This document shows, piece by piece, positions 9,649-56,406 of a DNA stretch of 64,000 bases. A program made the position numbers and the translations under genes. The stretch's first letter is position 1, and every line of letters starts with the position of its first letter. The notes beneath the pieces are model-generated. The model was not told where the DNA came from, ran no database searches, and was given only the letters and a program-made list of their open reading frames with translations. Source of the stretch: Candidatus Aenigmatarchaeota archaeon (GTDB lineage Archaea > Aenigmatarchaeota > Aenigmatarchaeia > GW2011-AR5); NCBI GenBank assembly GCA_016184005.1, contig JACPDL010000004.1, positions 14,107 to 78,106 of the forward strand. Reading direction: 5' to 3'.

Positions 9649-9759
9649 AAGGCTTATAAGCCTTTTGCATGCACGGCTCGTAGCAGAAACTAACTTATTA
9701 CTTGATATTTATTGTACGTGAAAAACATTAAAAACCAGCTTATAATATCATGGTCACCA

Positions 9760-10542
9760 TTACGTAAGCCTTACAAGGCCCCCTGTTTTTCTTGCACGAT
9801 GAAAAACAATCTTGTAAGCCAGAAGCGAGAAGACAGCATAAGCAACAGTTATCAAAAATCCTTCTGTCAAAACGGCTGAATTCGTGGTTCCTGCTGAAAC
9901 CAAAGCCCTAGTCGCTTCGAAGATGTTTGTGAAAGGCATAAGTTTTGATACAACTTGAACTGGTTCCGGGAATATGGAAACAGGGTAGAACGGTGCGGAA
10001 AGCAATATGAATGCCTGGAGTGCAGACCATGCAAGAAAGCTGTATTCTCTGCCTGCTGCAATAATCATGGCGGCAAGTAGTATTGCCAATGTCAACGAAG
10101 CAAACAACGTCAAGGCCGATAAAATTAGTATATCTGATGCGTTAGTCGCTATCAATGAGAGGCCAAACACATAGTAAGATATTCCAAGCATCAGCAGCAT
10201 TATTCCAATGGATATGATTATTGCAAATATCATGCGCGCTGTGAGATACTCAAACTCGGTTATGCCTGTAATGAGTATTTGTTTTAAGCTGCCAGACCAA
10301 GTGTCGTCATTCATTTGCATGTTTACACTGCTTTGCGCAAGATAGGCAAAGTTCCAGAATATGTTGACAACTAGAACAACAAGTCCGGCTTCTACGGCCT
10401 TATCCCGGACAAAAACAGAAAACAAGCCCCATATAATTATTGTAGTTAGCGGAAAGTAAATGAATTCTGCAATCTTCCATCTAGAATTCTTGAATACAAG
10501 CATGTCGTAATAGACTAACGCAGCTATTTTGTACAGTTTCAT
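9760..10542 (-). CDS. ABC-2 type transporter permease
   Basis: 260 aa with six predicted TM helices; overlaps the start of the upstream ABC ATPase gene by 4 nt. Confidence 0.6.
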   Translation of the reverse strand: MKLYKIAALVYYDMLVFKNSRWKIAEFIYFPLTTIIIWGLFSVFVRDKAVEAGLVVLVVNIFWNFAYLAQSSVNMQMNDDTWSGSLKQILITGITEFEYLTARMIFAIIISIGIMLLMLGISYYVFGLSLIATNASDILILSALTLFASLTLAILLAAMIIAAGREYSFLAWSALQAFILLSAPFYPVSIFPEPVQVVSKLMPFTNIFEATRALVSAGTTNSAVLTEGFLITVAYAVFSLLAYKIVFHRARKTGGLVRLT

Positions 10543-11459
10543 TTCTTGCCACCAAGTATTTTTACGAAATAGTCCTCGAGTGTTGGTTTCCTGCTCTCAA
10601 TTTCGGTTATTTCTATGCCTTTTTCAGCAAGCATTGAGAGTGTTTCGCTTATGTTCTCATCAGCAGGCAGTTCTTTTTTCAAAATATTTCCTTTTATGAC
10701 AAAACCTCTTTTCCTTAGAAACTCCTTGTTCTTCACGCTTCTGACTTTAATTATCAGGTCGTATGTGGCGAATTTTCTTAGCTTAACGGATTCAACAGTT
10801 CCAATATCAACTATTCTGCCTTTGTTAATGAAAGCTATCCTGTCACATAGCTGTTCCAATTCATGCATGTAATGGCTTGTCAGTATGATAGTGGTGCCAA
10901 GCTCCTTGTTAATTCTCTTTATCTCATTTCTAGCCTTGATTGCAATGTCAGGATCAAGACCTACTGTCGGCTCATCAAGAAGCAGAAGTTCAGGACTATT
11001 CAATAGTGCTTTAGCCATTATGAGCCGCATTCTTTCGCCTGTAGAGATATTGCTAAACTTGCTTTCCATAATGCGCTCTATCTCAAAGAATTTTGCCAGC
11101 TTTTTTGTTTCTGTTATTCTCTTGTTCTTTGGGATGCCATATAATCGTCCGTGAAACTCAAATATGTCTTTTACTTTCAATGCCCAATGAAATCTTGTTT
11201 CTCCTGAAACAAAATTCATCTTTTCAAATAAATCGTTGTTTTTTAGTGGATTCTTTCCAAAGATTTTTACATTTCCAGAGTCTGGGAATAAGATACCGAT
11301 TAATATATTGAGCAGTGTAGATTTTCCAGCTCCGTTCGGTCCAAGAATGCCGAATATCTCACCTTCTTCTATGTCAAATGAAATGTCTTTCAAGGCGAAG
11401 AAATCTTTACCCTGGTATTTGAACTTTTTAGATACATTCTCAACTTCAACAACAGGCAT
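10539..11459 (-). CDS. ABC transporter ATP-binding protein
   Basis: Walker A GPNGAGKST, signature LSTGERMRLIMAKAL and Walker B LLLLDEP. Confidence 0.85.
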   Translation of the reverse strand: MPVVEVENVSKKFKYQGKDFFALKDISFDIEEGEIFGILGPNGAGKSTLLNILIGILFPDSGNVKIFGKNPLKNNDLFEKMNFVSGETRFHWALKVKDIFEFHGRLYGIPKNKRITETKKLAKFFEIERIMESKFSNISTGERMRLIMAKALLNSPELLLLDEPTVGLDPDIAIKARNEIKRINKELGTTIILTSHYMHELEQLCDRIAFINKGRIVDIGTVESVKLRKFATYDLIIKVRSVKNKEFLRKRGFVIKGNILKKELPADENISETLSMLAEKGIEITEIESRKPTLEDYFVKILGGKK

Positions 11460-16225: not shown

Positions 16226-16837
16226 CATTAGCTTTCGTGTCGTCATCATTACGAAAAAGAAAGAAAGCAAGTACCATCCAAGCCACCTGAGTTCATTCCC
16301 TACAAACGGCGCTTGAAATGGGAGCAGGGCTGCGACCGGCGAGACCTTTACGGCATCACCAGCTACTGCTGCGTCAAAAACATTTTTTCTTTCCTCTAGT
16401 CTGCAGGGCATTTCGCATGTTTTGCCTTCAAACGATACGGAGTTCCCCTCAACTGCAATTGAACCGCCGTTGAATAAAACTTCCCCTTTCCCGTCTGTAA
16501 GTTCTATTATCTTTTCCCCGTAAACGGCCCCTATCCATGGAACCGAGACAAGCGTTATTATCATGGATATAATCATTGGCTTGAAAGACATCCTCATTAT
16601 TTTTCCCTGTTCCTTCATGACTTCTTTGAACAGCACATCAACTTCAGTTTTGTTCTGCGATTTCTGCTGTTCTTTCATCTTCGCATTAAGTTCCTTGATC
16701 CTTTCCCTGGAAGCTTTTGCGTCCTGCTGCTTTACCAGCAGCTTGTAGAAGATGTTTACTACAACTGCCGTGAGTATTGAGAACAAGATTATATCAGCGG
16801 TTATTGAAAAAAATACCATATTTTCACTCCTTGACAA
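16211..16837 (-). CDS. DUF106/EMC3-like (YidC/Oxa1-related) membrane protein
   Basis: 208 aa: TM helix, K/E coiled-coil (KELNAKMKEQQKS), then a TM hairpin, the architecture of archaeal DUF106. Confidence 0.45.
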   Translation of the reverse strand: MSRSENMVFFSITADIILFSILTAVVVNIFYKLLVKQQDAKASRERIKELNAKMKEQQKSQNKTEVDVLFKEVMKEQGKIMRMSFKPMIISMIITLVSVPWIGAVYGEKIIELTDGKGEVLFNGGSIAVEGNSVSFEGKTCEMPCRLEERKNVFDAAVAGDAVKVSPVAALLPFQAPFVGNELRWLGWYLLSFFFVMMTTRKLMKIYL

Positions 16838-17108
16838 ATTCCAGTTTTTTAACCCTGAAACCTTCTCCTATTGAATGCTTCTTCTTGCATTCTGCGCACG
16901 TATAGCGCAGGTCCAGCTTCCTTGTAGGCTTTTCCCTTCCTTTTGGATTTTCTTTCGGGAAAGAACCGTAACCTGCAAGCTTTCTCAAGAATCTTCTCTG
17001 GCTTTTTGTATTCTGCCTTCTAGGCCGTCTTTTCGCCTCATCTGCCGTATGCTCGGTGTGTTTCTTGCAGAACGGGCAGTATCTTTTCTGTTTTTTTGGC
17101 ATTTTCAT
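16824..17108 (-). CDS. rpl44e: ribosomal protein L44e
   Basis: MKMPKKQKRYCPFCKKHTEHT...YTCAECKKKH has the L44e zinc ribbon. Confidence 0.8.
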   Translation of the reverse strand: MKMPKKQKRYCPFCKKHTEHTADEAKRRPRRQNTKSQRRFLRKLAGYGSFPKENPKGREKPTRKLDLRYTCAECKKKHSIGEGFRVKKLEFVKE

Positions 17109-29739: not shown

Positions 29740-29860
29740 AGATGATATGCTCTTAATACTCCCACGACTAAAGTCGTGGGTTTCTGAGAGCATGTCATCC
29801 CAACATTGTTTATGTAATATCTGCTGTCTAAAGACAGCAGTTTTAAGCAATGTTGCGGAT
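29740..29860. repeat. compound stem-loop element (CSL family) copy
   Basis: CACGACTAAAGTCGTG hairpin, then ATCCCAACATTGTTTATGTAATATCT GCTGTCTAAAGACAGC ...AAGCAATGTTGCGGATAA. Confidence 0.55.
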
Positions 29861-35136: not shown

Positions 35137-35865
35137 ATGGAAGAAAAAATAGAATGCCGGGACTGCGGGAAAAGATTTTCCGTGCAGGAAGCCCTTGAGC
35201 AGCACAGGAAGGCGAAGCACGAGGAAATGAAAAAGGAGAGAAAACTGAAGCTCCCGATGAAATGGATTGCAGTTACGGCAATTGTCATAATTATTGCTGC
35301 AGGCGGGTACATGCTGGTTTCGTCCGCACCAAAATACACACCTGTATCAGGGTATAGCGAGCATTTTTTGGGCGCGGAAAACGCTTCTGTGGTTGTCATA
35401 GAGTACAGTGATTTCCAGTGCTCTTTCTGCGGAAGATTCTACCAGCAAACAGAGCCCCAGATTATCGAGGAATATGTTGACACAGGAAAGGTGAAGTTTG
35501 TCTACAGGCACTTCCCGCTGGCGCAGACGCACCAGTATGCACAGAAGGCTGCCGAGGCAAGCGAATGTGCATCTGACCAGGGCAAGTTCTGGGAGTATCA
35601 CGACAGGCTGTTTGATAATCAGAACGCGCTTTTCCCGGCATCACTGAAGAAATACGCTGCGGATATCGGTCTTGACAAGGCCGCGTTTGATGCATGTTTA
35701 GATTCTGGTGTGATGGCTTCCAGGGTGCAAAGCGGTTTTGAAGAGGGTCAGGGCAGGGGCGTGAGGTCAACGCCAACCTTTTTTGTAAATAACGTGAAAA
35801 TAGAGGGTGCCCAGCCTTTTGCTTCATTCAAGCAGGCAATAGAGTCGGAGCTTGGCAAGACGTGA
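35137..35865 (+). CDS. membrane-anchored DsbA-like thiol:disulfide oxidoreductase with N-terminal C2H2 zinc finger
   Basis: N-terminal CRDCGKRF...H...H finger, one TM helix, then a thioredoxin fold with CSFC active site and DsbA-like helical insert. Confidence 0.65.
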   Translation: MEEKIECRDCGKRFSVQEALEQHRKAKHEEMKKERKLKLPMKWIAVTAIVIIIAAGGYMLVSSAPKYTPVSGYSEHFLGAENASVVVIEYSDFQCSFCGRFYQQTEPQIIEEYVDTGKVKFVYRHFPLAQTHQYAQKAAEASECASDQGKFWEYHDRLFDNQNALFPASLKKYAADIGLDKAAFDACLDSGVMASRVQSGFEEGQGRGVRSTPTFFVNNVKIEGAQPFASFKQAIESELGKT

Positions 35866-35987
35866 ACGGGTAAAAATCATGATCTTGGCGGTAGCCCTTG
35901 GTTCGGTGCCGGGCTGAAAACCGTTTTAAACCGTTCCAGAGGCAACCTAGTTATTCCGGCCGCTACTATAGTTATATGGTGATTAAG

Positions 35988-36287
35988 ATGGAAAACAAAT
36001 ATGTGCTAGCGCTGCTGCTCGCCGCGGCAGTTGGAATATTGGCCGTAAGCGTAGCAGGCGCGCACAGCAATGGCAATCAAAACGCTATGATGGGTGATGG
36101 GAACTCCGGCATGATGGGGATGATGGGTGGCATGGGAATGATGAACGGCATGATGAGCACAGACGGCTTTGTCCACAACGAAGATGACATAGACTGGATG
36201 AGAGAAGAGATGAAAGAGCACATGAATTTCACGGACGAGGAATTCGACGGGATGGCCGAGCACTGCCCGATGATGAGAGGGCGCTGA
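35988..36287 (+). CDS. secreted Met-rich protein, paralog of 31517..32023 (start at MENKYV inside tracked ORF 35898..36287)
   Basis: Signal peptide ending VAGAHSNG followed by MMGDGNSGMMGMMGGMGMMNGMM repeats. Confidence 0.5.
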   Translation: MENKYVLALLLAAAVGILAVSVAGAHSNGNQNAMMGDGNSGMMGMMGGMGMMNGMMSTDGFVHNEDDIDWMREEMKEHMNFTDEEFDGMAEHCPMMRGR

Positions 36288-36547: not shown

Positions 36548-36554
36548 GGTGAAA

Positions 36555-36676
36555 TCATATCGTTCTTGATATAACCCACAACTTTAGTTGTGGGTTTGTT
36601 GAACGATGTGATCCCAACATTGTTTATGTAGTATCTACCGACTAAAGTCGGTAGTTTTAAACAATGTTGAGGATAA
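36555..36676. repeat. compound stem-loop element (CSL family), near-identical to 44098-44222; its 3' end abuts the osmC start codon
   Basis: ATCATATCGTTC..[ACCCACAACTTTAGTTGTGGGT]..GAACGATGTGAT then CCCAACATTGTTTA..[ACCGACTAAAGTCGGT]..TAAACAATGTTGAGGATA followed by ATG at 36676. Confidence 0.6.
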
Positions 36677-37206
36677 TGACTATACATGAAGATGATATGA
36701 AACTAAACAATGTAGACATGAACAAGGCTGGCGCTTTTTTGGAAGAGGTAAAGGCCGACAGAAACAAGGCAATAAAAATAAAGCGCGTGGAAGGCGAATG
36801 GAATTTCTCGGGTGTGCAATTCGCTGCAACATTAGAGCATGCGACTGGAAAGACTATCGTTGAGGCAGACGGCCCTCCTATAATGGGCGGCTCCGGTTTG
36901 AAGCCCGACCCTGTGCAGTACTGTTTGTTTGGCCTTGCAGCATGCTTTGCGCAGACATTCGCGTCGATAGCTGCCGAAAAGGGCATTGAGCTCAAGCGCC
37001 TGAAGGTGTCTGCAGAAAATAAAGTCAACCTGTCGAGGTCTTTGGGAATTGGCGACGAGCCGATAGTGGAAAATGTGAAACTATTTGTCACTGCTTCCGG
37101 CAGCGGCGACCTGAAAGAAGTGGAGCAGCTTGCGAAGGATAGGTGCCCGGGCGTTTACTGCCTGACGAACCCGATAAAACTGGATATAGAAAGCGACTTC
37201 TCCTAA
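36676..37206 (+). CDS. OsmC/Ohr-family thiol peroxidase
   Basis: GGSGLKPDPVQYCLFGLAACFAQTF and CPGVYCL motifs carry the two conserved Cys of OsmC/Ohr. Confidence 0.7.
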   Translation: MTIHEDDMKLNNVDMNKAGAFLEEVKADRNKAIKIKRVEGEWNFSGVQFAATLEHATGKTIVEADGPPIMGGSGLKPDPVQYCLFGLAACFAQTFASIAAEKGIELKRLKVSAENKVNLSRSLGIGDEPIVENVKLFVTASGSGDLKEVEQLAKDRCPGVYCLTNPIKLDIESDFS

Positions 37207-37414
37207 GGAATAAACGGTGACCTGCCATAGCCCGTCATTAAAACTGTAATCTGCCGACTAATTCATGGAGAGCAAAGCTCTACTGAATTCATTAGAAAAT
37301 CTGTAAGATTTTCTATGCACCGGAATAGCTATGCTATTCCGAGTGTCTCAAAGGGCTTCATACGAAACCCTTTGCAGAAAAGTCGGTAGTTTTAAACAAT
37401 GTTGGGGATAATTA

Positions 37415-37645
37415 ATGACTATGAAAATAGTATTCGACAGGAACAAGTGCACAGGCGCTTACTCGTGCGTGCAGGAAGAGCCTGAGAAATGGAAGCCTGC
37501 AAGCGACGGCAAAGTGGATCTGGACGGCTCAGTCCAGAAGAAGCCAGGGATCTTCGAGTGCGCAATAACGCAGGAAGAACTGGAAAAAGCCAGGATTGCG
37601 GCCGCTGTCTGTCCTGCATCCGCCATAAAGGTTGTTGAAGAGTAA
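37415..37645 (+). CDS. single-cluster [Fe-S] ferredoxin
   Basis: 76 aa with C-x5-C ... C ... CP spacing (CTGAYSC...FECAIT...AVCPASAI). Confidence 0.55.
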   Translation: MTMKIVFDRNKCTGAYSCVQEEPEKWKPASDGKVDLDGSVQKKPGIFECAITQEELEKARIAAAVCPASAIKVVEE

Positions 37646-37697
37646 ATTTTGCCGCAATGTAACATCTGGATAAAATCTCGAGAGGCTGTGATACTTA

Positions 37698-38081
37698 ATG
37701 AAAAGGAAAAAAATCATTTATGTTGCAGGCAATCCGCTTGTGAAGGAAGACAGCATACCGCTGCGCATAATGGCGAAGCTGCAGGAAGATTTCAAGCACT
37801 TTGAATTCCGCGAGCTTGAGCCTACAGACAACCCGCCAGAAGAAAAAACGCTGCACATAATAGATACGGTAATAGGCATAGATAATGTCAGGGTGATAAA
37901 GGATATAGACAGCCTCGTTACGGGCAAGGTTTACTCCTTGCACGACTTCGATCTTGGCTTCAACCTCAAGCTTATGAAAAAAATGGGAAAGCTGAAAGGC
38001 GTGCGCATAATTGGCGTGCCTGCGCACATGAAAGAGCACCTCGCGCTGAAAGGTGTAAGAAAGGCCCTAAGAAACATGTAG
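37698..38081 (+). CDS. hycI: [NiFe]-hydrogenase maturation endopeptidase (HycI/HyaD family)
   Basis: 127 aa with a GNPLVKEDSIPLRIM N-terminus, the IDTVIG metal-ligand region and a HDFDLG motif. Confidence 0.65.
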   Translation: MKRKKIIYVAGNPLVKEDSIPLRIMAKLQEDFKHFEFRELEPTDNPPEEKTLHIIDTVIGIDNVRVIKDIDSLVTGKVYSLHDFDLGFNLKLMKKMGKLKGVRIIGVPAHMKEHLALKGVRKALRNM

Positions 38082-38099
38082 TGCCTGGATGAGGGACGT

Positions 38100-38290
38100 T
38101 GCGGCTGAATGTTTTCCGGCTGCATGCGTTTATCTTGGGAGAAGCGAAGCTTCTCCCAAGATATATGGCAGAAACTTCGTTTCTGCCTATACAGGCGGAG
38201 CTTTGCTCCGCCATGTTCCCTAAATCCTTTGGATTTCGGGAATTCCAAAAAGCTGCGCTTTTTGAGAATGTTGGTTTTCCTGTTGCCCTT
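38100..38290. repeat. cluster of short hairpin repeat modules (HPR family)
   Basis: TTGGGAGAAGCGAAGCTTCTCCCAAG, CAGAAACTTCGTTTCTG, GGCGGAGCTTTGCTCCGCC, CCGAAATCCAAAGGATTTCGG and CCAAAAAGCTGCGCTTTTTGAG; the same modules recur at about 10 other sites. Confidence 0.6.
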
Positions 38291-38295
38291 TTTCT

Positions 38296-39585
38296 CTAGA
38301 GCCACTTTACCTTCAGGAAATGGCTTGCGCAGCTCAGGCAGGGATCGTAGGCGCGCAGGAGCTTCTCTATTTCGTATTCTATCTTTTCCTTCGGCAGCTT
38401 TTCCACGCTGTCCTGCACAAGTTTCGCGATGTCTTTTTCTATGTTTATCTGGTTTTGGGCTGTGGGCACAACGACATTTGCCTTCTTTATCTTTCCCGAT
38501 TTGCCAACTGTAAGCCTGTAATATAAAGTGCCGCGGGGCGCCTCTATAACACCTACGCCCACATTTTCCTCCTTTATATCGGTCTTCTGCAGCTCTTCCT
38601 TATGGAACGACGCGGTTTCCAGAAGCTCAATGGAATGGTCTATGCTGTGAAGGATTTCTATTGCCTGCGCCACATTGTTGTGAAAGATGTTGGTTGAAGG
38701 GAATGCCTGCACGTATTCCCTGGCGCTGTCTTTTGTTTCGGGATGCAGCATGCCCTTATTGAGATTGAGGCGCGAAAGGGCGCCCACCATGAACTCCTCA
38801 CCTTCGAATTCAAAGCCAGAAGCTTGCGAATATGGTATGATAACCCTGATAAGATGATCTAAATAGTCCTTCTCTTTTATGCAGATGCCCCTGCTGCTTT
38901 TTATCTCGCCTTCAAGGAAGCTGTAATCGTTCGTTGCCAGTGCCACAAAGTCCGTCTCCCTATCGAATCTTTCATCCCATCTGAAGAACGTATCTATCAG
39001 GTCGATCGCAAGAGGCCTGACGTACCTGAGCTCTTTTATCGCCTTTTTTACGCCTTCTTCGTCAGGTGTGTGCAGAAAGCCGCCTACTGTCGGATAAGGC
39101 GCATGCACGGCTTTGCCTGCCACTAGAGTGGAAAGCGTGTTGCCTGCGCGCTTCAGGTCGAATGAGTCATGTAGCAGCTTGTGTTCCCTTTCGTTTTTTT
39201 CGTCAAAATCCAGTATGGAGTCCTTTCCTATCAGGTCTGGCAGGCTGAAAAAATAAAGATGAAGCGCGTGATCCCTTATCATAAGCCCGTACATCGCAAG
39301 CTTCTTCATTAGCAGCGCCTGCTCCGTAGGCTCTATGCCTACGGCGTTCTCGATTGCCTCGATGCAACACGTCATGTGAGCTATGCTGCACGTGCCGCAT
39401 ATGCGCGACATAAGCTGTGGAGCGGTTGTTATCGGCTGCCCTCTTACAGCCTGCTCGTAAAATCTCTGGTTCTCTGTTATCTGCAACTTTACGTATTCAA
39501 CCTTGTCGTCGCGCACGCGGACATCCAGGTTTGCATGGCCTTCCACCTTTGTCAGGTTTTCTATGTTTATGTCAAAGCTGTGCAT
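38296..39585 (-). CDS. [NiFe]-hydrogenase large (catalytic) subunit, group-3-like size
   Basis: N-terminal EGH and RICGTCSIAH motifs and C-terminal DPCLSCASHF motif for Ni-Fe ligation; 429 aa as in sulfhydrogenase alpha subunits. Confidence 0.85.
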   Translation of the reverse strand: MHSFDINIENLTKVEGHANLDVRVRDDKVEYVKLQITENQRFYEQAVRGQPITTAPQLMSRICGTCSIAHMTCCIEAIENAVGIEPTEQALLMKKLAMYGLMIRDHALHLYFFSLPDLIGKDSILDFDEKNEREHKLLHDSFDLKRAGNTLSTLVAGKAVHAPYPTVGGFLHTPDEEGVKKAIKELRYVRPLAIDLIDTFFRWDERFDRETDFVALATNDYSFLEGEIKSSRGICIKEKDYLDHLIRVIIPYSQASGFEFEGEEFMVGALSRLNLNKGMLHPETKDSAREYVQAFPSTNIFHNNVAQAIEILHSIDHSIELLETASFHKEELQKTDIKEENVGVGVIEAPRGTLYYRLTVGKSGKIKKANVVVPTAQNQINIEKDIAKLVQDSVEKLPKEKIEYEIEKLLRAYDPCLSCASHFLKVKWL

Positions 39586-41080
39586 CTATGCCTAACCCCT
39601 TTATTTGTCTGTTCATGACTGCAAGAAATCCTGTTTCCGTCATCGGGCAGCCTGGAACGATATCGTCCACTTTCACGATTTCATGAAGCGGCTTGACCTC
39701 TTTGCTGTAGCTGAAAGTGCTGACTATCGGCTCTATTTCCCTGCTCCTTCTTTCGTCAAATGTATTTCTCTGTCCCGAAGGCATGCCTGTTATGGCGCAT
39801 GCGCCGATGGCGATAAGCACCTTTGAATTTTCCCTTATCTTTCTCAGCTCTTCGGCGGCTTTCTCGTTTGATATCGCGCCCTCAACGAAAGCTATGTCCA
39901 GGTTCGTCATGTCGTTCTGTTTTCTCAGCGCTCTTGCGTAAGTTATGTCAGCCACGCTTTTTATTTTGTCGTAGTAGTCGTTGAGGATTTCGGTGAACAC
40001 TATAGTGCTGTCCTCGCAGCAACTGAAGGAGAACCACCCGATGCGAAGCTTCCTTTTCGGCGCAGCCGGTTCTGCGATCCTTCTGGCTGTTGTGACTGCG
40101 GCCTGAACCGGTGTTGACGACGACGCTTGCGCTGTCTGCTGCGCTGATGTCCCGTGCACATAATCGAAGTAAAGTTCCCGTGAGCGCAGGTATTTGATGA
40201 CATTCACGGCGGCGTTGCAGCCGTCGCCGACGTTTTTTGCTATCTGCCTGCAGCGGCCCGCGCAGTTGCCAGCCGCGAAAGCGCCCTCCATGCTCGTCAT
40301 GTTATTTTCGTCCACAACAAGCACGTTGTCCCTTATTTCCAGTCCGAGATCTGTGGCAAAATCCAGTGCGCCGGCTGTGCCGCATGCCATGAAAACGCCG
40401 TCAAATTTCAGCTTCGTTCCGTCTTCCAGAACAACGCCTTCAAACCATTTTCCGCCAGTGAATTCCTTTACATTCGACACGAGCGTCTCTATCCGCCATT
40501 TTTTAATTTCCCTGCCGTAATTTTCGGAGAAATCGAATTTCGTGGCATTCGATATTATTGTTATGTCTTTCGTATAGGAAAGCGCCTCTACGGCGTCCTC
40601 TGCCGCATGATTGCCGCTGCCTATTATGGCAAGCTTCTTGTTCTTGTACAGGGGGCCGTCGCATGACACGCAGTAATGCACGCCCTTGCCTGTCAGCTCC
40701 TGCTCGTTTTTGATACCCGAAAGCCTTATCGGCACGCCCGTAGCTATTATCATGGCCCTGCTTTTCAGGTTTTCTCCTTTGCTTGTCTTTATCGAGAAGA
40801 ATTTTTTGCCGCTTTCTTCGCAAGCAGTAGCAGCGACAACCTCATCTTTGAGGAACTTGACATCGAATTTTTGCGCCTGCCTTATTCCTTTGTTCAAAAG
40901 CATGGAGCCGTCTACGCCTTCCGGAAAACCAAAATAATTTTCTATGTGCATTGCCAGCTGCGCCTGGCTCTTCTCAACCATTCCTATTATCAGCGTTTTC
41001 AGTTCAGCGCGGCCGCAGAAAATAGCTGCCGACAGGCCCGCAGGGCCGCAGCCAACTATTATGACGTCGCATTCCTCCAC
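39572..41080 (-). CDS. fusion protein: thioredoxin-reductase-like flavoprotein (CVSC redox-active disulfide, no NADPH-binding Arg pair) plus [NiFe]-hydrogenase small subunit proximal-cluster domain
   Basis: Residues 1-300 resemble TrxR: IVGCGPAGLSAA FAD site, CVSCDG, second GSGNHAAEDA dinucleotide fold; the HRR NADPH motif is replaced by ISNATKF. A Q/A/S/T-rich linker follows. Residues about 340-502: GWFSFSCCEDS...DIAFVEGAIS...AIGACAITGMPS...VPGCPM match the small-subunit four-Cys proximal FeS site. Confidence 0.75.
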   Translation of the reverse strand: MEECDVIIVGCGPAGLSAAIFCGRAELKTLIIGMVEKSQAQLAMHIENYFGFPEGVDGSMLLNKGIRQAQKFDVKFLKDEVVAATACEESGKKFFSIKTSKGENLKSRAMIIATGVPIRLSGIKNEQELTGKGVHYCVSCDGPLYKNKKLAIIGSGNHAAEDAVEALSYTKDITIISNATKFDFSENYGREIKKWRIETLVSNVKEFTGGKWFEGVVLEDGTKLKFDGVFMACGTAGALDFATDLGLEIRDNVLVVDENNMTSMEGAFAAGNCAGRCRQIAKNVGDGCNAAVNVIKYLRSRELYFDYVHGTSAQQTAQASSSTPVQAAVTTARRIAEPAAPKRKLRIGWFSFSCCEDSTIVFTEILNDYYDKIKSVADITYARALRKQNDMTNLDIAFVEGAISNEKAAEELRKIRENSKVLIAIGACAITGMPSGQRNTFDERRSREIEPIVSTFSYSKEVKPLHEIVKVDDIVPGCPMTETGFLAVMNRQIKGLGIDAQL

Positions 41081-41997
41081 TAGATTCCCCTCTGCTCACT
41101 TTTTATTCCTGCAGCAAGATAGGCGCCTATCAGTATAACGGCGGAGCCCGCAAGCTGCACGGGCGGTGTAGGTTCACCCAGGAATGCCGCGCCTATGGCG
41201 AGCGAAACAACAGGAGCCAGCAGAAGCAGGACCGCCGCCTTTGACACGTTGATGAGCTTCAGCGAGCAGTAGTAGAAAAGGACGTAGCTGAACAGCAGAA
41301 GCGTGGACATGCCTATGTTGAGGATCTGCGCGTTTGTCAGTGCGAGCAGTGTGTCCGTCTTATTCATCAGCAGGGCGGCGCCGAATAAAATAAGCCCGCC
41401 GAAAAACATCCTTGCGAATGACACTATGAAATTTGTTTCACCCTTTACCATGGCTTTTTTCGCTATGACATTTTCAGCTGCCCAGAGTAATGTGGCTAAA
41501 ATAACGAGCATGTCTCCAAGTTGGGGGTTTAACCACAGTTCAGAAGGAACTATCGATGAGAAGTATATCGCAACGGTGCCTGCAAACATAAGCGACGTTG
41601 CGGCAAGATATTTTTTTGTTATCCGCTCCCTGAGGAAGAAGAATGCAAGCAAGGCGGTGTAGAGTGGCAGCGTTTTGTGGAGGAACGCCGCATGGCCAGC
41701 CGTGGTCAGCTTAAGCCCTGTAAAGTACAGGAAAAATGCAGCGGAGCCGCCAATGACTGCTATGGCTGCCAGGTATTTCCAGGAAACGGAAATGAATCTT
41801 TGCCTTTTCTTCGCTTTTGATTTGAACAGCCACCACGAAAGAAGAAGGAAAACCGTGCCGATAATTACGGAGCGCACGGCAGTGAAAACCAGCGGCTCGA
41901 TGTTTACTATGAAAATCTTGTTGGCAGGTATGGCTATGCCGCTGACAAAAGCTGCAATAGCCGCCAGTAGCGTTCCAAGCGTCTCTTTTTTCATCAC
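41080..41997 (-). CDS. EamA/DMT-superfamily transporter located inside the hydrogenase operon
   Basis: 305 aa, 10 TM helices, duplicated EamA domains. Confidence 0.65.
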   Translation of the reverse strand: MMKKETLGTLLAAIAAFVSGIAIPANKIFIVNIEPLVFTAVRSVIIGTVFLLLSWWLFKSKAKKRQRFISVSWKYLAAIAVIGGSAAFFLYFTGLKLTTAGHAAFLHKTLPLYTALLAFFFLRERITKKYLAATSLMFAGTVAIYFSSIVPSELWLNPQLGDMLVILATLLWAAENVIAKKAMVKGETNFIVSFARMFFGGLILFGAALLMNKTDTLLALTNAQILNIGMSTLLLFSYVLFYYCSLKLINVSKAAVLLLLAPVVSLAIGAAFLGEPTPPVQLAGSAVILIGAYLAAGIKSEQRGI

Positions 41998-42515
41998 AAT
42001 ACCTGCAGCTGTTTTTTCTGTTTTTTCATTTTTTCCGTTGTTGCCCTGTCTATTTTCTCCACGATAAAATCCCAGTGCGTAACAACCAGGTCGCCTTCTT
42101 TCACGTCACAGTAATCTGCCTTGTACCTGCTCCTGCCAAGAGAATTTTCAACGACAGCGAAGCCGTTACCCATCTTACGAACTACTCCGGGTCTTATGCG
42201 GCACGCCTGTGGATCGAAGTCGCCCATCTCGCCATACCTTTTGCTGACGGCCGTATCGTGACCGAACAGGAAATATTGGTGTACGATGTCCGCATCTATT
42301 TCTTTTTTTCCGCTGTCCTTGGCTATCAGGGAGCAGGCGGCAAAGGCGACCTTGAAAATTCTCTCCGCATCTTTGGGTATCGGCCTGTTGTTTTTTACAG
42401 CGGCTATTAGCATGTCGACGTACTCCTGCCTTGCGCTGCCGCGCTGCACAAGCGTGCCTGCACACGGCACTGCATATTTCATGAAGAGCATGCGGCTTTT
42501 TTCCTCTATTTCCAT
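41994..42515 (-). CDS. protein with C-terminal HypC-like domain and about 100-aa N-terminal extension
   Basis: The C-terminal 60 aa (ACRIRPGVVRKMGNGFAVVENSLGRSRYKADYCDVKEGDLVVTHWDFIVEKI) align with HypC, but the conserved Cys is internal rather than at position 2. Confidence 0.4.
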   Translation of the reverse strand: MEIEEKSRMLFMKYAVPCAGTLVQRGSARQEYVDMLIAAVKNNRPIPKDAERIFKVAFAACSLIAKDSGKKEIDADIVHQYFLFGHDTAVSKRYGEMGDFDPQACRIRPGVVRKMGNGFAVVENSLGRSRYKADYCDVKEGDLVVTHWDFIVEKIDRATTEKMKKQKKQLQVL

Positions 42516-42524
42516 TGACACTAC

Positions 42525-42686
42525 CTATTCTGCCTTCTCCACGGCCATTCCTGCGGCGCAGTATACATAATCGCCTGTCTTTGCGTCGACAAGGTCTATC
42601 CGCACCTCGGAAAGCTTGCCGTTTATGTCAACAACGGCCGTGTTGCCTTTTATTTCCAATACCTTTCCAACAGAGGTGACGCACAC
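42525..42686 (-). CDS. hypC: hydrogenase assembly chaperone HypC (GTG start, 53 aa, below ORF-track cutoff)
   Basis: Reverse translation gives (M)CVTSVGKVLEIKGNTAVVDINGKLSEVRIDLVDAKTGDYVYCAAGMAVEKAE with Cys at position 2 and a HypC beta-barrel pattern. Confidence 0.55.
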   Translation of the reverse strand: MCVTSVGKVLEIKGNTAVVDINGKLSEVRIDLVDAKTGDYVYCAAGMAVEKAE

Positions 42687-42719: not shown

Positions 42720-44048
42720 TTACCAGAGCAGCCCTATGAATGCGAGGAGCAGAAGGCCGATGAAGGCTATCACTATTCCGGCTTTTGCTATGTCCTTCAT
42801 GTTTACGAATTTTGTTCCGTATGCAATAGCCGTTGGGGGCGTGCCGAAGGGGAACATGAAATCGAGGGAAACGCCCATGGCTGCAACAACGACTATGTTT
42901 GTTGTATCTGCTCCTAATGTGGATGCGAGGGCGACGATGATAGGCAAGTAAACAGCTGCTGCTGTCGTATTGCTTACGACGACCGTCATAAGGATGCCAA
43001 AGAACCCAAGAAACAACAGGAGCGCAAGGATGCTCTGGCCACTGACAACATTTGAAAGAATAGAAGCGAAGGAGCTGTCTAGAGCCGATTGATGTATTCC
43101 AAAACCGAGCGCAAGCCCCCCGCCTACAAGGAGCAGCGTTGGCCAGTCAATTCTTGTAAAGTCCTCTGCCTCAAGAAGCCCCGCAAAATAGAATAGAATT
43201 ATTGGAACAATGGCAACAACGCTGCTGGATATGCCGTGCAAAGGCTCAGAAAGCCACAAGATGATTGTAAGCAGAAATATCACCAGTACTTTTTTTTGGT
43301 TTCTGTTTATTTGTGGCGCCTTCTCCAGGGTTGAAATGTTTCTTTTTTCGGGTTTGTACAGCAGAACAAGTATAGCCCAGCAGAATACCAGCAAAATTAA
43401 CATGAATGGGAAGCCTCGGTAGAACCATTCAAAAAAGCCGAAGGAAGTTCCAGAATCCTGTAGGAATTTTGCTGCTATGACATTCGGCGTGCTTCCGACT
43501 ATAGTTCCCAAGCCGCCTATTGTTGCGCCGTAAGCAACAGCAAGGACGGATGCTTTTCCAAAATTTGATTTTCCGGCTTTCATTCTGTTTTTTGCAAGTA
43601 TCACAAGTGCTATTGGCATGATTATTGCTGCAGCTGCAGAATTGCTTATCCACATTGATATGAAAGCGGTTGTAAACAGGAGCGCAAAAACAACGTTTTT
43701 CGTGCTTCTGCCGGCTGTTTTTATGATCTTATACGCTATGTACTCGTCCAAGCCGTATTTTCTCATTGCCATGGCGATCACGAATCCGCCAAGTAAAAGC
43801 ACTATAACCGGATCGAAGTATTGGGAGAAAACTTCTTTGGAGTCAATGTCTGCCACTGTTGTCAGAAGGAACGCAACAAAAAGTGCCGTTACATGGAGAG
43901 GAATAGCCTCTGTTATCCACAAACAAACAGCAAGTGCCATGACAGCGAGCATGACTTGTTGGTTGCCTGGCAGCCCAAAAGGGAGCACATAAACCAAAAA
44001 GGCCGCGACAAATGACAAAGTTATGAATTTTGCGCGCACGTTCTTCAT
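42720..44048 (-). CDS. ArsB/NhaD-superfamily (SLC13/DASS-like) anion permease
   Basis: 442 aa, more than 12 TM helices, internal duplication typical of the ArsB/CitT/NhaD fold. Confidence 0.65.
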   Translation of the reverse strand: MKNVRAKFITLSFVAAFLVYVLPFGLPGNQQVMLAVMALAVCLWITEAIPLHVTALFVAFLLTTVADIDSKEVFSQYFDPVIVLLLGGFVIAMAMRKYGLDEYIAYKIIKTAGRSTKNVVFALLFTTAFISMWISNSAAAAIIMPIALVILAKNRMKAGKSNFGKASVLAVAYGATIGGLGTIVGSTPNVIAAKFLQDSGTSFGFFEWFYRGFPFMLILLVFCWAILVLLYKPEKRNISTLEKAPQINRNQKKVLVIFLLTIILWLSEPLHGISSSVVAIVPIILFYFAGLLEAEDFTRIDWPTLLLVGGGLALGFGIHQSALDSSFASILSNVVSGQSILALLLFLGFFGILMTVVVSNTTAAAVYLPIIVALASTLGADTTNIVVVAAMGVSLDFMFPFGTPPTAIAYGTKFVNMKDIAKAGIVIAFIGLLLLAFIGLLW

Positions 44049-44097: not shown

Positions 44098-44222
44098 AAA
44101 ATCATATCGTTCTTGATATAACCCACAACTAAAGTTGTGGGTTTGTTGAACGATGTGATCCCAACATTGTTTATGTAGTATCTACCGACTAAAGTCGGTA
44201 GTTTTAAACAATGTTGAGGATG
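44098..44222. repeat. compound stem-loop element (CSL family), near-identical to 36555-36676
   Basis: About 120 nt nearly identical to the osmC-upstream copy; ends AAACAATGTTGAGGATGAGC. Confidence 0.6.
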
Positions 44223-45859: not shown

Positions 45860-46058
45860 CATACCACACCACCAAATGACCAGCTAGTAAATTCTCAAAA
45901 AGCGAAGCTTTTTGGAATCTCGGAAAGCTATGCTTTCCCGAGATAGCTTAATCTAATATCCATTTTAGGATTCCCACAGAAATCCCACACCCTTAACACC
46001 GTTATTATGGTTTTGCGGGTTTATATTGATTTCTCTGATCAAGAGGCTAGATGTTAAC

Positions 46059-46379: not shown

Positions 46380-46515
46380 AATATATACGATTTTCTCTTG
46401 GGAGAAGCGAAGCTTCTCCGAGATCTTCGGAGAAACTCCGTCTCTCCGAGATTCCGAAATCCTTTGGATTTCGAGAATTCCAAAAAGCTATGCTTTTTGA
46501 GAATTTAGCAGGTTA
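46380..46515. repeat. HPR hairpin-module cluster
   Basis: TTGGGAGAAGCGAAGCTTCTCCGAG, CCGAAATCCTTTGGATTTCGAG and CCAAAAAGCTATGCTTTTTGAG, the same modules as at 38100-38290. Confidence 0.55.
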
Positions 46516-46539: not shown

Positions 46540-46735
46540 AGAAATCATATCTTCTTAATATACCACCGACTAAAGTCGGTGGTTTGTGAGAAGATGTGAT
46601 CCCAGAGACATTGTGTTTCATCTGCTGTCTAATCCTAAATCAAGCAAAGCTTGATTTGAATTTCTCAAAGGATTTTGAAGAAATCCTTTGCAGAAAAGAC
46701 AGCAGTTTTCAATGTCTCTGAGGATAATTAGAGTA
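46540..46735. repeat. CSL-family element carrying inserted HPR modules, abutting the 23S 3' end
   Basis: ACCGACTAAAGTCGGTGG, then outer stem CCCAGAGACATTG...CAATGTCTCTGAGGATAA enclosing HPR hairpins. The outer stem covaries relative to the other copies. Confidence 0.55.
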
Positions 46736-47793: not shown

Positions 47794-49039
47794 GTCTAAC
47801 TTTTATTAGTTTGTTTTATACTGATTTCTATATTGCGTTAGATAGTATATAGATATCCTGATTCTTGCCCAGCTAACGTGCCCTTTTAATCTGTGAACTC
47901 CAGCACCCTTGGCTGCTGCTGCACAGCCAGGAGAGGACGAGCCGACAGCGACGCCGCAACGCACGGGGTCGATTTGTTCTCCGCATTGCATGGAATAAGC
48001 GTAGTAACGCCAATTTCATTGCTAGGTAAATCAACACTTATCCTGATACTAACGCCAATTTTCATTGTAAGCTTTTTGCTTAACTCTATCGGTTGAGGGT
48101 ATCAGGATTCGCCTAATCAGCCTGAGCACATCTGAGCTCTTCGTTTGGCTAAAACTGCTAAGGCAAAGATAGCTCTGAATAAGTTTTGATTAAGCTAACT
48201 TTGACTTCCAATTAAAGAGTCAGACTTTCAGGCCTGCGGATAAGAACTCTCACCCGCCACGACACCATTATCCCCGAGGTAGCTTTTCTCATGTCACAGT
48301 CAGCCATCTAGGCCAAACTGCGTATCGCTAACTCACGCTTTCACGGTTGGACACCATTATGTTAGGAGTCCAATCAATGCAGCTTTTGCGTTTGCACTCT
48401 ACCCGCGATTTCTGACCGCGGTGAGCTGCACTTTGAGGGCCTTTGATATAACCTCGAGCATCGCAAGGGATTATACATGCTATGCTTGATACAATTTCAA
48501 AGGCGTACCGCCCCAGTCAAACTATCCACCTGCTGCTGTCACGCTTTCGCGTTAAGCAGTAGAGTCAAAAAAGGGTAGTGTTACATTGTCGCCGAAGCTC
48601 CTACCTACACTATACAATCCCAACTCAACCACAACAACAAGCTATAGTAAAGCTCTACGGGGTCTACTCTTCCCACTGGAGGTCTCTGGCCTAATCACCA
48701 GAACAATAGTTTCGCCGAGTTCCAGTTCGGGACAGCACCCATCTGGTTAATCTATCATGCAGGCCAACTGTTACAGCCTTTTCCTCATAATATGCTTTCT
48801 TTTTCCCAAGGGTTTCTCTTTGCGAAAGAAAAAGGCTTATTTAATTGGCAAGGGATTTAACGAATCCTCTAACATGACGTTTTTAGTCGTGATAGGATTT
48901 TACGCTACCTTAAGACCCTCAGAGTTAGGGCCGGCCTACAGCGGGGCTTCGACCGGTTGAAACCAGTTTTAACACACCGCTAGTGGCCACGACTCGCTGG
49001 CTATACTAAGCCTTTCGGCTTTGCAGCCAGCTATGTTTG

Positions 49040-49591
49040 TTAACTCCGAAGAATAGGTTTCCTTATCTTGATTCCACGGACGCTTTTCCTGAAAATTTCT
49101 ATAGATTTCGCTCTGTATATCTGAACTCCAAATATTTTGCCGAATCTATAGATTTTGCAGGTCAAACCTTGCTTGCTAAGGAACTCTGAAATTGCTTCCA
49201 GAAGCTTGAGGTGGCTGTTATAGATTACAATTCTGTCTGTAACAGTCCCTTCTGCGTCAAAAAATCCTGAAATGAAATCCCATTTATCTTTATCCTGTAG
49301 ATTATCAAAAAACTCTACAGGATTTTCTCTTAGGATCTCGAATTCTTTGTACAAATTTTTGGAATAAACTAATGATCTAGTCTTATCCAAAAATCCGTAC
49401 TGATGAACTCGTAATTCCATTTCTCTGAATTTTTTAGACGCTTCTTCGGCAATTTCCTTATTTCTGTTGCACTGATCTATCCATACTGCGAACGCACGAT
49501 TCTTTCCGTGATTCATCGTACCGTCGCCGTACAGCAGACCTGCAAGGTAAGCATCCATCAAGAATTTACATGCTGCGTGGCACATAAACAT
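49040..49591 (-). CDS. LAGLIDADG homing endonuclease (double-motif) encoded in a second 23S rRNA intron (intron about 49030-49615)
   Basis: LAGLLYGDGT and ISGFFDAEGTV motifs. The ORF begins right after the exon sequence GGACTGTTTAACAAAC (the conserved GACUGUUUAAUAAAAACA region). Confidence 0.8.
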   Translation of the reverse strand: MFMCHAACKFLMDAYLAGLLYGDGTMNHGKNRAFAVWIDQCNRNKEIAEEASKKFREMELRVHQYGFLDKTRSLVYSKNLYKEFEILRENPVEFFDNLQDKDKWDFISGFFDAEGTVTDRIVIYNSHLKLLEAISEFLSKQGLTCKIYRFGKIFGVQIYRAKSIEIFRKSVRGIKIRKPILRS

Positions 49592-52500
49592 TTCTGTTTT
49601 CTACTCTTCAGGTTTGTTAAACAGTCCGATGGATCTTGTCACTGCGACCTGCCCATCACTGAGCAGGCACGTCATATACCTAAGATACGACGCTAATTTG
49701 CCGAGTTCCCTAAACTGGATTATCTCGAACACCTTCGCCTTCTCGGCGAGGGGCACCTGTTTCCCGAATCCTTTCCGTAAACGCTTTTCGCGTGAGTCGG
49801 AAAGGGTTTGTCGGTTCTGAGTACGAGCGTTCAATGTCATAACATACCAGGATTTTCAAGGGCTCCAGGAATTATCCAAAGCCGCCATACGGCAGCCTTA
49901 TCGCGCCTTCCCAAAGTTCTCGTCATGATGACACTCCCTTTGGTTGAGCGTTTAAACATAGCGACAACCATGTTCGGACTATCCCGAAGCGTCTCCGGTA
50001 TGGTAAACATAGAGCGGTTCGGGAATATTAACCCGATCTCCATTCGCGCACTTCTTCTTAAGGGTGCACTTAGGCTCGACTTACCCCCAGCAGATAAACT
50101 TTACTGGGGAACCCTTGCCCCTTAGGTGGACGAGATTCTCACTCGTCTGAATTGCTACTCCCGGCAGGATCTTCATTGCTGCTAGGTCCACACCCGCTTA
50201 CGCGGACGCTTCTGCCCTCGCAGCACGCCTCCCTACCACATGCAGTTTGCTGCATGTCATTTGTATCGGCAAGGGACTTAGCCCCGTCCATTTTCCCCGC
50301 CCTGAAGCTCGGTGGGTCCGCTATATCGCGAGAAGCCCCTTCTCTTGTAAGAGAAAGGCCCTTGGGTTCAAAGAGAACTTTTACTCGCTTCGCTCGAATA
50401 TTATATTTTGTAATAATGCGAACACAGCGAGCCCATTAGTTTTCTTTTCCCAAGGTCTTTTCTTTTCTGCAGAAGACGAACGTCTTCTGCAGAAATCCAA
50501 GAAGCTTTTGCTTCTTAGGATTTGCAAAAAGAAAAGCCTTCTTTACGCGTTGTTTGAAGGGTGGCTGCTTCTAAGCCTACCTTCCCACTGTCTGAGCTTC
50601 AAGACCAAGTTCGATACACTTAGTCCCTATTTAGGGGCCTTAACAAATGTCTCGGTTGTTTCCGTCTCGGATGCCAAACTTACTCCAGGCACCCTCACTC
50701 CCGCCTGCGCAACAGCAGATTTGGAGTTTGACAAGGTGGTTGGACCTCTCGGCCCTTAGCCATCTAATCAGTGCTCTACCCTGCTGTCAGCCATAGGCGA
50801 GGCTGCACTTAGATGCATTTCGGGAGGAACCAGCTATCACCAGACTCGATTGGCTTTTCACCCCTAACCCCAGGTCACCCGACAAGTTTGGACTATGTTC
50901 GGTATCAGGCCTCCATTTCGCTTTCGCGAAACTTCACCTTGCCCAGGGCTAGATCGTCTGGTTTCGGGTCTCAATCCCGTGACTAATCGCGCGTTAACAC
51001 GACGAACCTTGTTGCCTGCGTTCTATCGCTTTCGCTTCGCATTTCTGCTCGCCACGAGAATGAACTCCCTGCCCCGTTTTTCGAAACGGACGACGGAATC
51101 ATCTGCTCTTGCGAGCAGCGTTACCCGTCTAACTATAGGTACCTGGTTTCAGGCTCTTTTTATTGGGTGTTACCCCTTCTTTTCAGCTTTCCGTCACCGT
51201 ACTACTGCGCTATCGGTTTCAGGCAGTATTTAGGATTGGATCTAGATGAGACCCGTATTCCTGCTCCTAATTCAAGAAACAGTACTCTGGATACTCGCCA
51301 TTCACCTTCTCAACTTCGGATACGCGGCTGTCACGCTTTGGCGCGCTGCTTATGCTGAAACTTTTCAGAAGTTTTTGATCAAACTTTTTCTAAAAAGTTT
51401 ATCCAGCAGACTTCTCCTCGTTGAATGAGGCAAGACACGAGTCCAAACACCACATTGCTTTGTCTTTTCAGCAAAGCTTCGGTTTGTCCTTTGCTGCTTT
51501 CACTCGCCGTTACTAACAGCATCGCAATTGCTTTCTTTTCCTGGCCGTAATAAGATGTTTCAATTCTGGCCGTTCGCCCTCCCTTGCGGGAGTATACAGG
51601 ATGTCCCATTCGGCAATTCTCGGTTCGAAGACTGCATGCGTCTCGCCGAGACTTTTGGCAGCTTACCACCGCCTTCGTCGCCACCTGAACCAAGCCATCC
51701 ACCAAATACCATGGGAGCTAGCTATCTTTACCTCCGGACCTGTGACCGCTTCATATGTTTTTGAAAAGGAAAACGCTAAAAGCGTATTCCATTTGCTCTG
51801 CGCTTAACCCAGCAAATTTCTTCGTGGGCCGCAATCATACTAGATGATTATGAAATTACCAGATATTTTTGAACGATCAAAGCTTCATTCGACATTATTC
51901 ACATCTTGTTAACACTGTTCAGAATTAGACAGAGAGAAAGCATAGATACGTTCTTGATTTTGCCATATGCCATCTACCTGCTGCAAACTTCGTCTTTTGC
52001 CACAAAGACCAAAGCCACTCTGAACAGCTTTCGGTAGTTCAACTTTATTGTAGAAATGCAGGATTTCTGACCCTGCGTAACCAGAAGTAATGTATAAAAA
52101 TATAAAAAGGTTTGGGTGGGCTCAATAAACAAGTTCTGGATGATCTTTGCGCAAAAAACATCTTATAGCTGGAACAAGTTGCATAACTACTGCGTCATCT
52201 TGTTTACGAGCAAAGACATCGTAATGAAATTCTCCATGAGTTACTGTACGAAGATATGTTAATTCTGGGTTTAACGCACCCTTGCGCTCATTTTGAGAAT
52301 GAACGAATTCTTCTGCCGTGAATGGTCACTAATTAATCTATTGTCCAGAACCCCTTTATTAATTTTCAAAGTATGAAGAAACACGCAAATTTAAAATCAG
52401 AGTTCATACAATTAAGATTCAAGCGGGGGTTCCCTAGCCTGGTCAACAAATCCCTTTCTTTAAAGAAAGGTCTTTGTATGTCCCAAAGAACATTTGGGAT

Positions 52501-53791: not shown

Positions 53792-56406
<2,615 letters not shown>

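Follow-up and report, generated by a model that had tools for sequence, protein, structure and literature searches.

Why should a transporter of the EamA family, a branch of the drug/metabolite transporter (DMT) superfamily, be encoded in the middle of an archaeal [NiFe]-hydrogenase operon? The question arises from a 64,000-nucleotide stretch of Candidatus Aenigmatarchaeota archaeon (GenBank assembly GCA_016184005.1, contig JACPDL010000004.1, positions 14,107 to 78,106 of the forward strand; hereafter the window, whose own numbering is used below), in which an initial annotation made from the letters alone had noted such a gene between maturation and structural genes. All of the open reading frames (ORFs) in that annotation were recovered at their places, and profile hidden Markov models (HMMs) of Pfam and NCBIfam bore out every label but that of HycI. 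Reading along the minus strand, a short hypC (42525–42686; the annotated 53 amino acids and GTG start were confirmed, with PF01455 HupF_HypC at 2.5e-13 and 50.4 bits against a cut-off of 28.5) is followed by the gene for an N-terminally extended relative, here called HypCx (41994–42521; a 175-residue ORF with a sub-threshold HupF_HypC match), an EamA/DMT permease with ten transmembrane segments (41080–41997; 305 amino acids; PF00892 8e-39, 133 bits, two repeats), a fusion of a thioredoxin reductase (TrxR)-like flavoprotein to a hydrogenase small subunit (39572–41080; 502 amino acids; Pyr_redox_2 plus Oxidored_q6) and the [NiFe]-hydrogenase large subunit (38296–39585; 429 amino acids; PF00374 NiFeSe_Hases, 3e-30). 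From hypC to the large subunit, the junctions are a gap of 3 nt and then overlaps of 4, 1 and 14 nt, bearing out the overlapping operon that had been described and fitting a single translationally coupled unit. We favour, with moderate confidence, the reading that the window carries a lineage-specific DPANN [NiFe]-hydrogenase cassette with a linked HypC/HypCx/EamA/HycI maturation set, in which EamA would be the partner of HypCx.

The main evidence for this reading is comparative. We assembled 36 non-redundant loci, including the window, from Aenigmatarchaeota, Micrarchaeota and unclassified archaeal metagenome-assembled genomes (MAGs), drawing on contigs that encode homologues of the fusion, HypCx and EamA and on a scan of GTDB species genomes with a HypCx profile. 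The annotation of each locus used HMMs derived from the cassette proteins and a neighbour range of 10 kb, and the ORFs of the window were scored with Pfam and NCBIfam models, the cut-offs of which were used for family membership. The conserved unit across these loci consists of hypC, hypCx, the EamA/DMT permease, a HycI-like protease and minimal small and large [NiFe] subunits. The order hypC–hypCx–eamA was kept in 34 of the 36 loci, in two DPANN phyla and with or without TrxR, a separate short hypC was detected in 33 and hycI was present in 33. An EamA orthologue lay within 0.2 kb after hypCx in 34 loci (the exceptions being L025, where it is 3.4 kb off, and L029, which has a paralogue only), and the transporter inside the hydrogenase operon, as first annotated, thus stood out among the features of the locus as the best conserved and the most interesting. 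Mean identity to the window proteins was 52% for HypC, 52% for HypCx, 63% for EamA, 53% for HycI, 59% for the small subunit and 66% for the large subunit. EamA identity tracked large-subunit identity (r = 0.74), and in distant loci EamA was the best conserved component (in Micrarchaeota versus the window, 55–61% for EamA and 52–58% for the large subunit). In the Micrarchaeota, hypC–hypCx–eamA–hycI forms an operon of its own, convergent with the large–small pair, which indicates that EamA travels with the maturation genes.

Natural gene fusions, found in other metagenomic archaea, point in the same direction. HypC is fused to HypCx in four proteins (P0137, at 6307–6987 of locus L008, P0370, P0389 and P0421) and HypCx to HycI in one (P0343). 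Locus L040 encodes a fusion of HypCx to EamA (P0315, 4811–6448), in which 545 residues include a 65-residue linker rich in Glu, Lys and Pro, with hypC before the gene and genes for a HycI-like protein and a large subunit behind it; a further example, P0282, is incomplete because its contig ends within it. HypCx occupies the N-terminus of the carrier in this fusion, a placement that fits the cytoplasmic N-terminus of a DMT protein with ten transmembrane segments. Fusions and synteny together imply that EamA is tied functionally, and probably physically, to the chaperones.

We also asked whether the permease might instead serve disulfide chemistry, as a thiol/disulfide shuttle (for example, of cysteine/cystine) working with TrxR in the manner of cysteine export by Escherichia coli EamA (YdeD). 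The stop codon of eamA overlaps the start of the TrxR fusion, and the permease weakly matches the NCBIfam O-acetylserine/cysteine exporter (3e-7, far below cut-off); every NCBIfam equivalog among subfamilies with a known substrate likewise scored far below its cut-off. However, EamA is equally conserved in the approximately 20 loci that lack TrxR, it belongs to the maturation operon and not to the neighbourhood of the structural genes in Micrarchaeota, and it is HypCx, not TrxR, to which it has been fused, making a thiol shuttle quite improbable. As to the co-occurrence of EamA with the TrxR fusion, which the initial annotation had suggested examining, EamA is not bound to the fusion. Its presence with or without TrxR and its fusion to HypCx tie the transporter to the maturation chaperones rather than to disulfide reduction.

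The two chaperones are themselves distinct. The short HypC starts with Met-Cys (MCVTS in the window and MC(I/V)T in all orthologues) and, in an alignment with E. coli HypC and HybG, lacks the conserved His (His51 in E. coli), the aligned residue being Ala with a Cys one residue before; the short HypC of locus L007 has neither that His nor the preceding Cys. HypCx combines a helical N-terminal domain of approximately 100 amino acids with a complete HypC OB-fold. The window copy alone is sub-threshold for HupF_HypC (8e-5, 23.1 versus 28.5 bits), whereas the family profile matches the whole of Thermococcus kodakarensis HypC (PDB 2z1c) at 3.4e-8. Six residues (C18, C61, H86, D87, C105 and H147) are invariant in an alignment of 27 homologues, numbered on the NCBI call P0121, which starts MEIEEK; the length of 173 amino acids given at first is that of this call, the ORF itself having 175. 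C105 (107 in the ORF) aligns with Cys2 of the solved HypC, and H147 with the HypC His, so the internal Cys that had been noticed in the HypC-like C-terminus is indeed present and stands in register with HypC Cys2. By alignment and by model, this Cys is not at a free N-terminus in the protein as encoded, since a folded domain of 100 residues precedes it. The AlphaFold2 model (predicted local distance difference test score (pLDDT) 95, predicted template modelling score 0.89) has five helices and then the OB-fold; in Foldseek searches, the C-terminal domain matched HypC chains with template modelling scores of 0.77–0.88, and the N-terminal domain had no structural match in the PDB. In its Cys/His pair, HypCx is thus more canonical than the short HypC. 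An exhaustive HMM search recovered 232 clusters of relatives at 50% identity with E ≤ 1e-10, nearly all of two-domain length, and HypCx is a sizeable, unnamed family.

These features suggest how the cassette might work. HypC and HypCx, as paralogous chaperones, would most likely work as a pair, binding the iron moiety and passing it on to the large subunit, with the short HypC contributing its N-terminal Cys and HypCx a putative metal site of Cys and His together with a helical domain bearing two further invariant Cys. The HycI-like protease would then remove the seven-residue tail that follows the C-terminal His of the large subunit. EamA is predicted to be the physical partner of HypCx at the membrane, and our best guess for its cargo is either a small molecule or a chelated metal that cofactor assembly requires or gives off, and that EamA would exchange with HypCx.

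Several observations weigh against this reading. The HycI assignment is weak if judged by the window copy alone, which has no Pfam match, and the HypCx::EamA fusion comprises one complete and one truncated gene call. The membrane domain of EamA has no invariant His or Cys, which argues against direct coordination of Ni2+ or Fe2+ and makes a free metal ion a less than obvious cargo; a direct Ni2+ channel was dropped from consideration on this ground. HypD, HypE and HypF, the known partners of HypC, were not found near the cluster, in the window or in approximately 0.5 Mb of flanks. In one closed 846-kb Aenigmatarchaeota genome (CP070809.1, locus L036), neither hycI nor structural genes of a hydrogenase lie less than 10 kb from the hypC–hypCx–eamA trio (9281–10906), and the trio may therefore serve something else, or the structural genes may sit elsewhere. 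This last locus, having the trio without an adjacent hydrogenase, would suit an explanation by inherited synteny or operon hitch-hiking, in which EamA has no functional link to the hydrogenase; but the adjacency is kept across two phyla and three operon architectures, and the genes have fused, which leaves that explanation very improbable. We also observed, 8 kb downstream of the same trio, a gene for a 306-residue Carbam_trans_N protein.

The lack of metal ligands bears on a further alternative, namely that EamA transports nothing here and instead docks the maturation complex, or the completed hydrogenase, at the membrane. The fusion to HypCx would place a chaperone at the membrane, EamA has no conserved cofactor- or metal-binding residues, and an uncharacterized protein with four to six transmembrane segments has been described beside DPANN [FeFe] hydrogenases (Greening et al. 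2024, PMC11216029). Yet the polar and charged residues that active DMT carriers typically have within the membrane show more than 93% conservation (E123, D161, E174, N188, R195, N249, K252 and E274), and the conservation of EamA is very high for a mere anchor. We consider such a dock unlikely, and retain a carrier that partners HypCx as the preferred reading. A C-terminal tail of EamA, KSEQRG(I/V), was considered as a docking peptide and rejected: its conservation is confined to loci in which the downstream gene begins at that point, and so probably reflects the ribosome-binding site of that gene.

As had been stated for hypA, hypB, hypD, hypE and hypF, none was found in the window, nor in approximately 0.5 Mb of flanks, in phmmer searches of E. 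coli proteins against all six-frame ORFs; these searches took the place of a regular-expression scan for HypD, HypE, HypF and HypA motifs, which gave nothing meaningful. A more far-reaching proposal is that [NiFe] maturation in these genome-reduced DPANN archaea proceeds without the full HypABDEF set and that EamA imports a metal complex or cofactor precursor, possibly derived from a host, and passes it straight to a Cys-rich, self-contained HypCx/HypC scaffold that replaces HypD, making up a transporter-coupled minimal route to NiFe(CN)2CO; we give this proposal only a slim chance. Sua5/YrdC-like and Kae1/TsaD-like genes lie a few kilobases from the cassette in several Aenigmatarchaeota loci (L001 1999–3557, L006 2180–4170, L035 15262–16914 and L037 5290–6279), and an acylphosphatase gene is found at 4111–4386 of L008; Sua5/YrdC and Kae1/TsaD are domain homologues of HypF. 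The idea that they constitute a 'split HypF' was set aside, as they are more simply explained as universal t6A genes in conserved local synteny.

The enzyme that this set would mature is a reduced one. Across loci, its conserved sizes are approximately 430 amino acids for the large subunit and approximately 160 for the small subunit or domain, which has one cluster. The large subunit of the window carries the motifs RICGTCSIAH and DPCLSCASH and, after the His, the seven-residue tail FLKVKWL, a tail that is kept in orthologues. Its best NCBIfam match was the sulfhydrogenase alpha subunit ShyA, at 243 bits versus a cut-off of 700; against HydA it scored 232 versus 880. The small-subunit domain (fusion residues 344–490) has four Cys for one cluster (SCC...GAC...GCP), and its counterpart in sulfhydrogenase delta is the stretch of 150 residues at the N-terminus. 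Only small- and large-subunit genes were found, with no beta or gamma diaphorase subunit in any locus. The first two cluster ligands of the fusion (residues ~350–356, FSCCEDS) are adjacent Cys, a tandem that we take to resemble NuoB of complex I and not the CxxC of standard hydrogenase small subunits.

The electron acceptor is set apart in one Aenigmatarchaeota subclade, which includes the window. The fusion protein shows 100% identity to one from an NCBI Candidatus Aenigmarchaeota MAG, which marks the host as a DPANN archaeon. The flavoprotein part (fusion residues 1–300; PF07992, 3e-36) retains the redox CxxC of TrxR (CVSC in the window and CV(S/N/W)C across orthologues) and has SNATK at the position of the NADPH motif HRRD; against TIGR01292, the low-Mr thioredoxin reductases, it scored 217.9 versus a cut-off of 343.45. 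Its best PDB matches were 5nii (3e-50) and 6gna (2e-28), the former having TQGK at the HRRD position and being, we assume, the Desulfovibrio vulgaris TRi enzyme itself. TQGK is the motif reported for the NAD(P)H-independent TRi class, the electron donor of which is unknown (PMC5627308). Among the 36 loci, TrxR is fused to the small subunit in 14 (all of Aenigmatarchaeota type), is a separate gene in 2 and is absent in approximately 20. The two separate cases (L008 8001–9428 and L015 13623–15061) have TrxR and the small subunit as adjacent genes, and represent either intermediates from before the fusion or a later splitting of it. With a TrxR domain of NAD(P)H-independent type joined to the small subunit, electrons in this subclade are predicted to pass from H2 through the NiFe site, the [4Fe-4S] cluster and FAD to a Cys-Cys disulfide reductase.

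The protease of the set is encoded on the plus strand, convergent with the operon (37698–38081; 127 amino acids), and takes its label from its orthologues. Five of the six orthologues matched PF01750 (best 7e-6), while the window copy itself had no match in Pfam, so the HycI-type assignment made at first stood for the family and not for this copy. A profile of 32 family members matched E. coli HybD/HyaD/HycI in hmmsearch (3e-5, for HybD); in hhalign, the GNxLxxD, Asp and His positions were aligned, with E = 6e-4 and a probability of only 29%, and against E. coli HycI alone the probability was 1%. A profile search of the PDB had no match, and a single-sequence AlphaFold2 model reached a pLDDT of only 35. 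Within the family, the motif GN..xxD and residues D18, D56 and H82, candidates for the Asp/Asp/His metal site of such proteases, are invariant. Judged by these sequence features, the 127-residue protein is likely a divergent HycI-type C-terminal endopeptidase for the large subunit.

Beside hycI, the initial annotation had two further plus-strand genes: a monocluster ferredoxin (37415–37645; Fer4_15, 4.6e-10), 52 nt upstream of the HycI-like gene, and an OsmC-superfamily protein (36697–37206, in an ORF from 36664; PF02566 7e-15, 55.6 bits versus a cut-off of 27.5), of which 36697 is the likely true start, because the homologue in the closest relative, L034, aligns only from ~36691. The original functional hypothesis was that the TrxR–hydrogenase fusion uses H2 to reduce a dithiol carrier for the adjacent OsmC/Ohr peroxidase, as a peroxide and disulfide detoxification unit. 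The protein does belong to the OsmC superfamily and has Cys at both catalytic positions (AAC*F on the Ohr peroxidatic Cys, plus DRC*PG), TrxR has kept its CxxC, the cluster of L034 likewise has three genes no more than 5 kb away, for OsmC, a DsbA-like protein and a MarR-type regulator, and the OsmC and ferredoxin genes share a nearly identical 31-nt upstream element. However, OsmC was found within 10 kb in only 2 of the 36 loci (the window and L034), being absent from 34 of the 35 others, and the L034 genes lie beyond DASS on the opposite side of the cluster, whereas the window OsmC adjoins the ferredoxin gene. The Ohr-type label also failed, the protein scoring 19.6 versus 88.85 against Ohr (TIGR03561) and 17.1 versus 85.8 against OsmC (TIGR03562), and so being neither equivalog; its best PDB match was 2opl, a 'hypothetical protein' (4e-9). 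The window has no ORF for a thioredoxin-like WCxxC protein, and Ohr is normally recycled by lipoylated proteins. Homologous loci without OsmC, which the initial annotation had named as refuting the linkage, are therefore the rule, and OsmC is linked to the cassette only in this genome and its closest relative; the shared 31-nt element favours a local link but is weak evidence against 34 loci that have no OsmC. A reductase that feeds an Ohr-type peroxidase is thus largely refuted by synteny, and we leave it little probability; the cassette does not extend to OsmC, the DsbA-like protein or the remaining neighbours, which belong to the local setting.

The ferredoxin has a somewhat wider distribution. 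The fd–hycI pair occurs in the window, L034 and L035, with ferredoxin loosely nearby in L008 (4 of the 36 loci); the linkage seen at first is thus kept in the nearest subclade and absent elsewhere. On the proposed scheme, the nearest relatives would also have gained a ferredoxin gene ahead of hycI. Relatives of TrxR that do not use NAD(P)H are known to accept electrons from ferredoxin (FFTR), and by this analogy the ferredoxin could plausibly be another redox partner for the fusion.

The start of the annotated interval, 36555, falls within a repeat and not in a gene. This repeat R, a family of approximately 120 nt, has a 123-nt copy at 36552–36674 (plus strand) with 98% identity to a second at 44099–44221 (plus strand), with which it forms a direct pair; further copies lie at 29759–29860 and 46562–46730 (with an internal insertion), and the 3′ half only at 37379–37409. 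The chance expectation was 0 matches. The structure has two hairpins and an enclosing stem, the consensus fold comprising 41 pairs, 4 of them with compensatory changes. The 3′ end of the first copy, TTTTAAACAATGTTGAGGATAAT, runs into the start region of OsmC, and the 3′ end of the repeat holds a TATA-like TTTTAAAC and GAGGATAAT just before the start codons of OsmC and ferredoxin. Repeat R matched no Rfam family, and none of the related loci contains it; R may be either a mobile element that carries a promoter or a small RNA. Direct repeats bracketing the block from OsmC to DASS, together with the different placement in L034, make the present adjacency look like the product of rearrangement. 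The intergenic regions 37207–37414 and 38082–38295 contain strings of different short perfect hairpins with stems of 8–10 bp, pieces of which recur, some direct and some inverted, at 38219–38269, 45888–45926 and 46454–46507.

Directly upstream of hypC, the window encodes a DASS-family anion:Na+ symporter (42720–44048, minus strand; TIGR00785, 316 bits, above cut-off), which adjoins the cassette in 8 other loci and is nearby in 3 more, in Aenigmatarchaeota only. In L008, a NikR-type (NikR_C) regulator gene (16770–16942) adjoins the DASS and ferredoxin genes, the cassette being approximately 7 kb away. On the far side of OsmC, the window has genes for a DsbA-like protein of thioredoxin fold that bears a C2H2 zinc finger at its N-terminus as well as a transmembrane segment (35137–35865) and for a 129-residue protein with a Met/Gly-rich tract, MMGDGNSGMMGMMGGMGMMNGMM, and no Pfam match (35898–36287). 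The 23S (47816–51726, minus strand) and 16S (53792–55534, plus strand) rRNA genes are divergent and unlinked, and their lengths of 3911 versus 2987 nt and 1743 versus 1478 nt in the Rfam models suggest that they carry introns or insertions.

Together, these results bear on two general assumptions. First, [NiFe] maturation is thought to rest on a fixed Hyp set, and the co-inheritance of a DMT carrier with an N-extended HypC across two DPANN phyla, along with their fusions, suggests that cofactor assembly or metal supply includes a membrane-linked step not described before. To our knowledge, no DMT protein has been implicated in hydrogenase maturation, and a literature search found no paper on an association of EamA with HypC, none on a fusion of TrxR to a hydrogenase small subunit and nothing relevant on DPANN hyp genes. 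Second, MAG surveys label these DPANN enzymes as group 3b, with NADPH coupling assumed (PMC8407114, PMC8561730), and Greening et al. 2024 (PMC11216029) describe other small-subunit fusions, not this cassette. Our analysis corrects the label, in that diaphorase subunits are absent and one subclade has a fused TrxR of NAD(P)H-independent type; the fusion also hints at what might naturally supply electrons to the orphan TRi class. With six or seven genes, the cassette is small enough for heterologous expression.

Compared with known systems, the large subunit and small-subunit domain are nearest to the alpha and delta subunits of group 3b sulfhydrogenases (Pyrococcus HydADBG/ShyABCD), but the beta/gamma diaphorase is missing, the small subunit is cut to one cluster, scores fall far below equivalog cut-offs and the electron-acceptor module of the window is a TrxR-like flavoprotein. 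That module resembles the TRi of D. vulgaris (PMC5627308) and the ferredoxin-dependent FFTR (6gna–6gnd) in keeping CxxC and missing the HRRD 2′-phosphate motif, and differs in having SNATK in place of TQ/NGK and in a covalently fused small-subunit domain, which would take over from the ferredoxin donor, or the unknown one, of those enzymes. The putative protease resembles HycI/HybD/HyaD (PF01750) in its size, its place by the large subunit, a GNxLxxD motif at the start, conserved Asp and His residues and a predicted cleavable tail on the large subunit, although it is very divergent (the window copy went unseen in Pfam and PDB sequence searches) and the tail has only seven residues. With HypC/HybG/HupF (2z1c and E. 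coli), the chaperones share the OB-fold, a Cys on Cys2 in both window proteins, the HypCx His on His51, a location beside the structural genes and two paralogues per cluster, as in bacterial HypC plus HybG/HupF. Unlike these, the short HypC of the window has 53 residues and no His, no HypD was found nearby and, whereas canonical HypC needs its Cys at the processed N-terminus, the Cys of HypCx is internal, behind a helical domain of 100 residues with two extra invariant Cys. Finally, genes for nickel permeases of the HoxN/HupN (NiCoT) and HupE/UreJ types sit in hydrogenase clusters. The transporter gene of the window is likewise co-inherited among hydrogenase accessory genes, but its product belongs to the unrelated DMT superfamily, has none of the His/Asp metal motifs and can be fused to a HypC-type chaperone.

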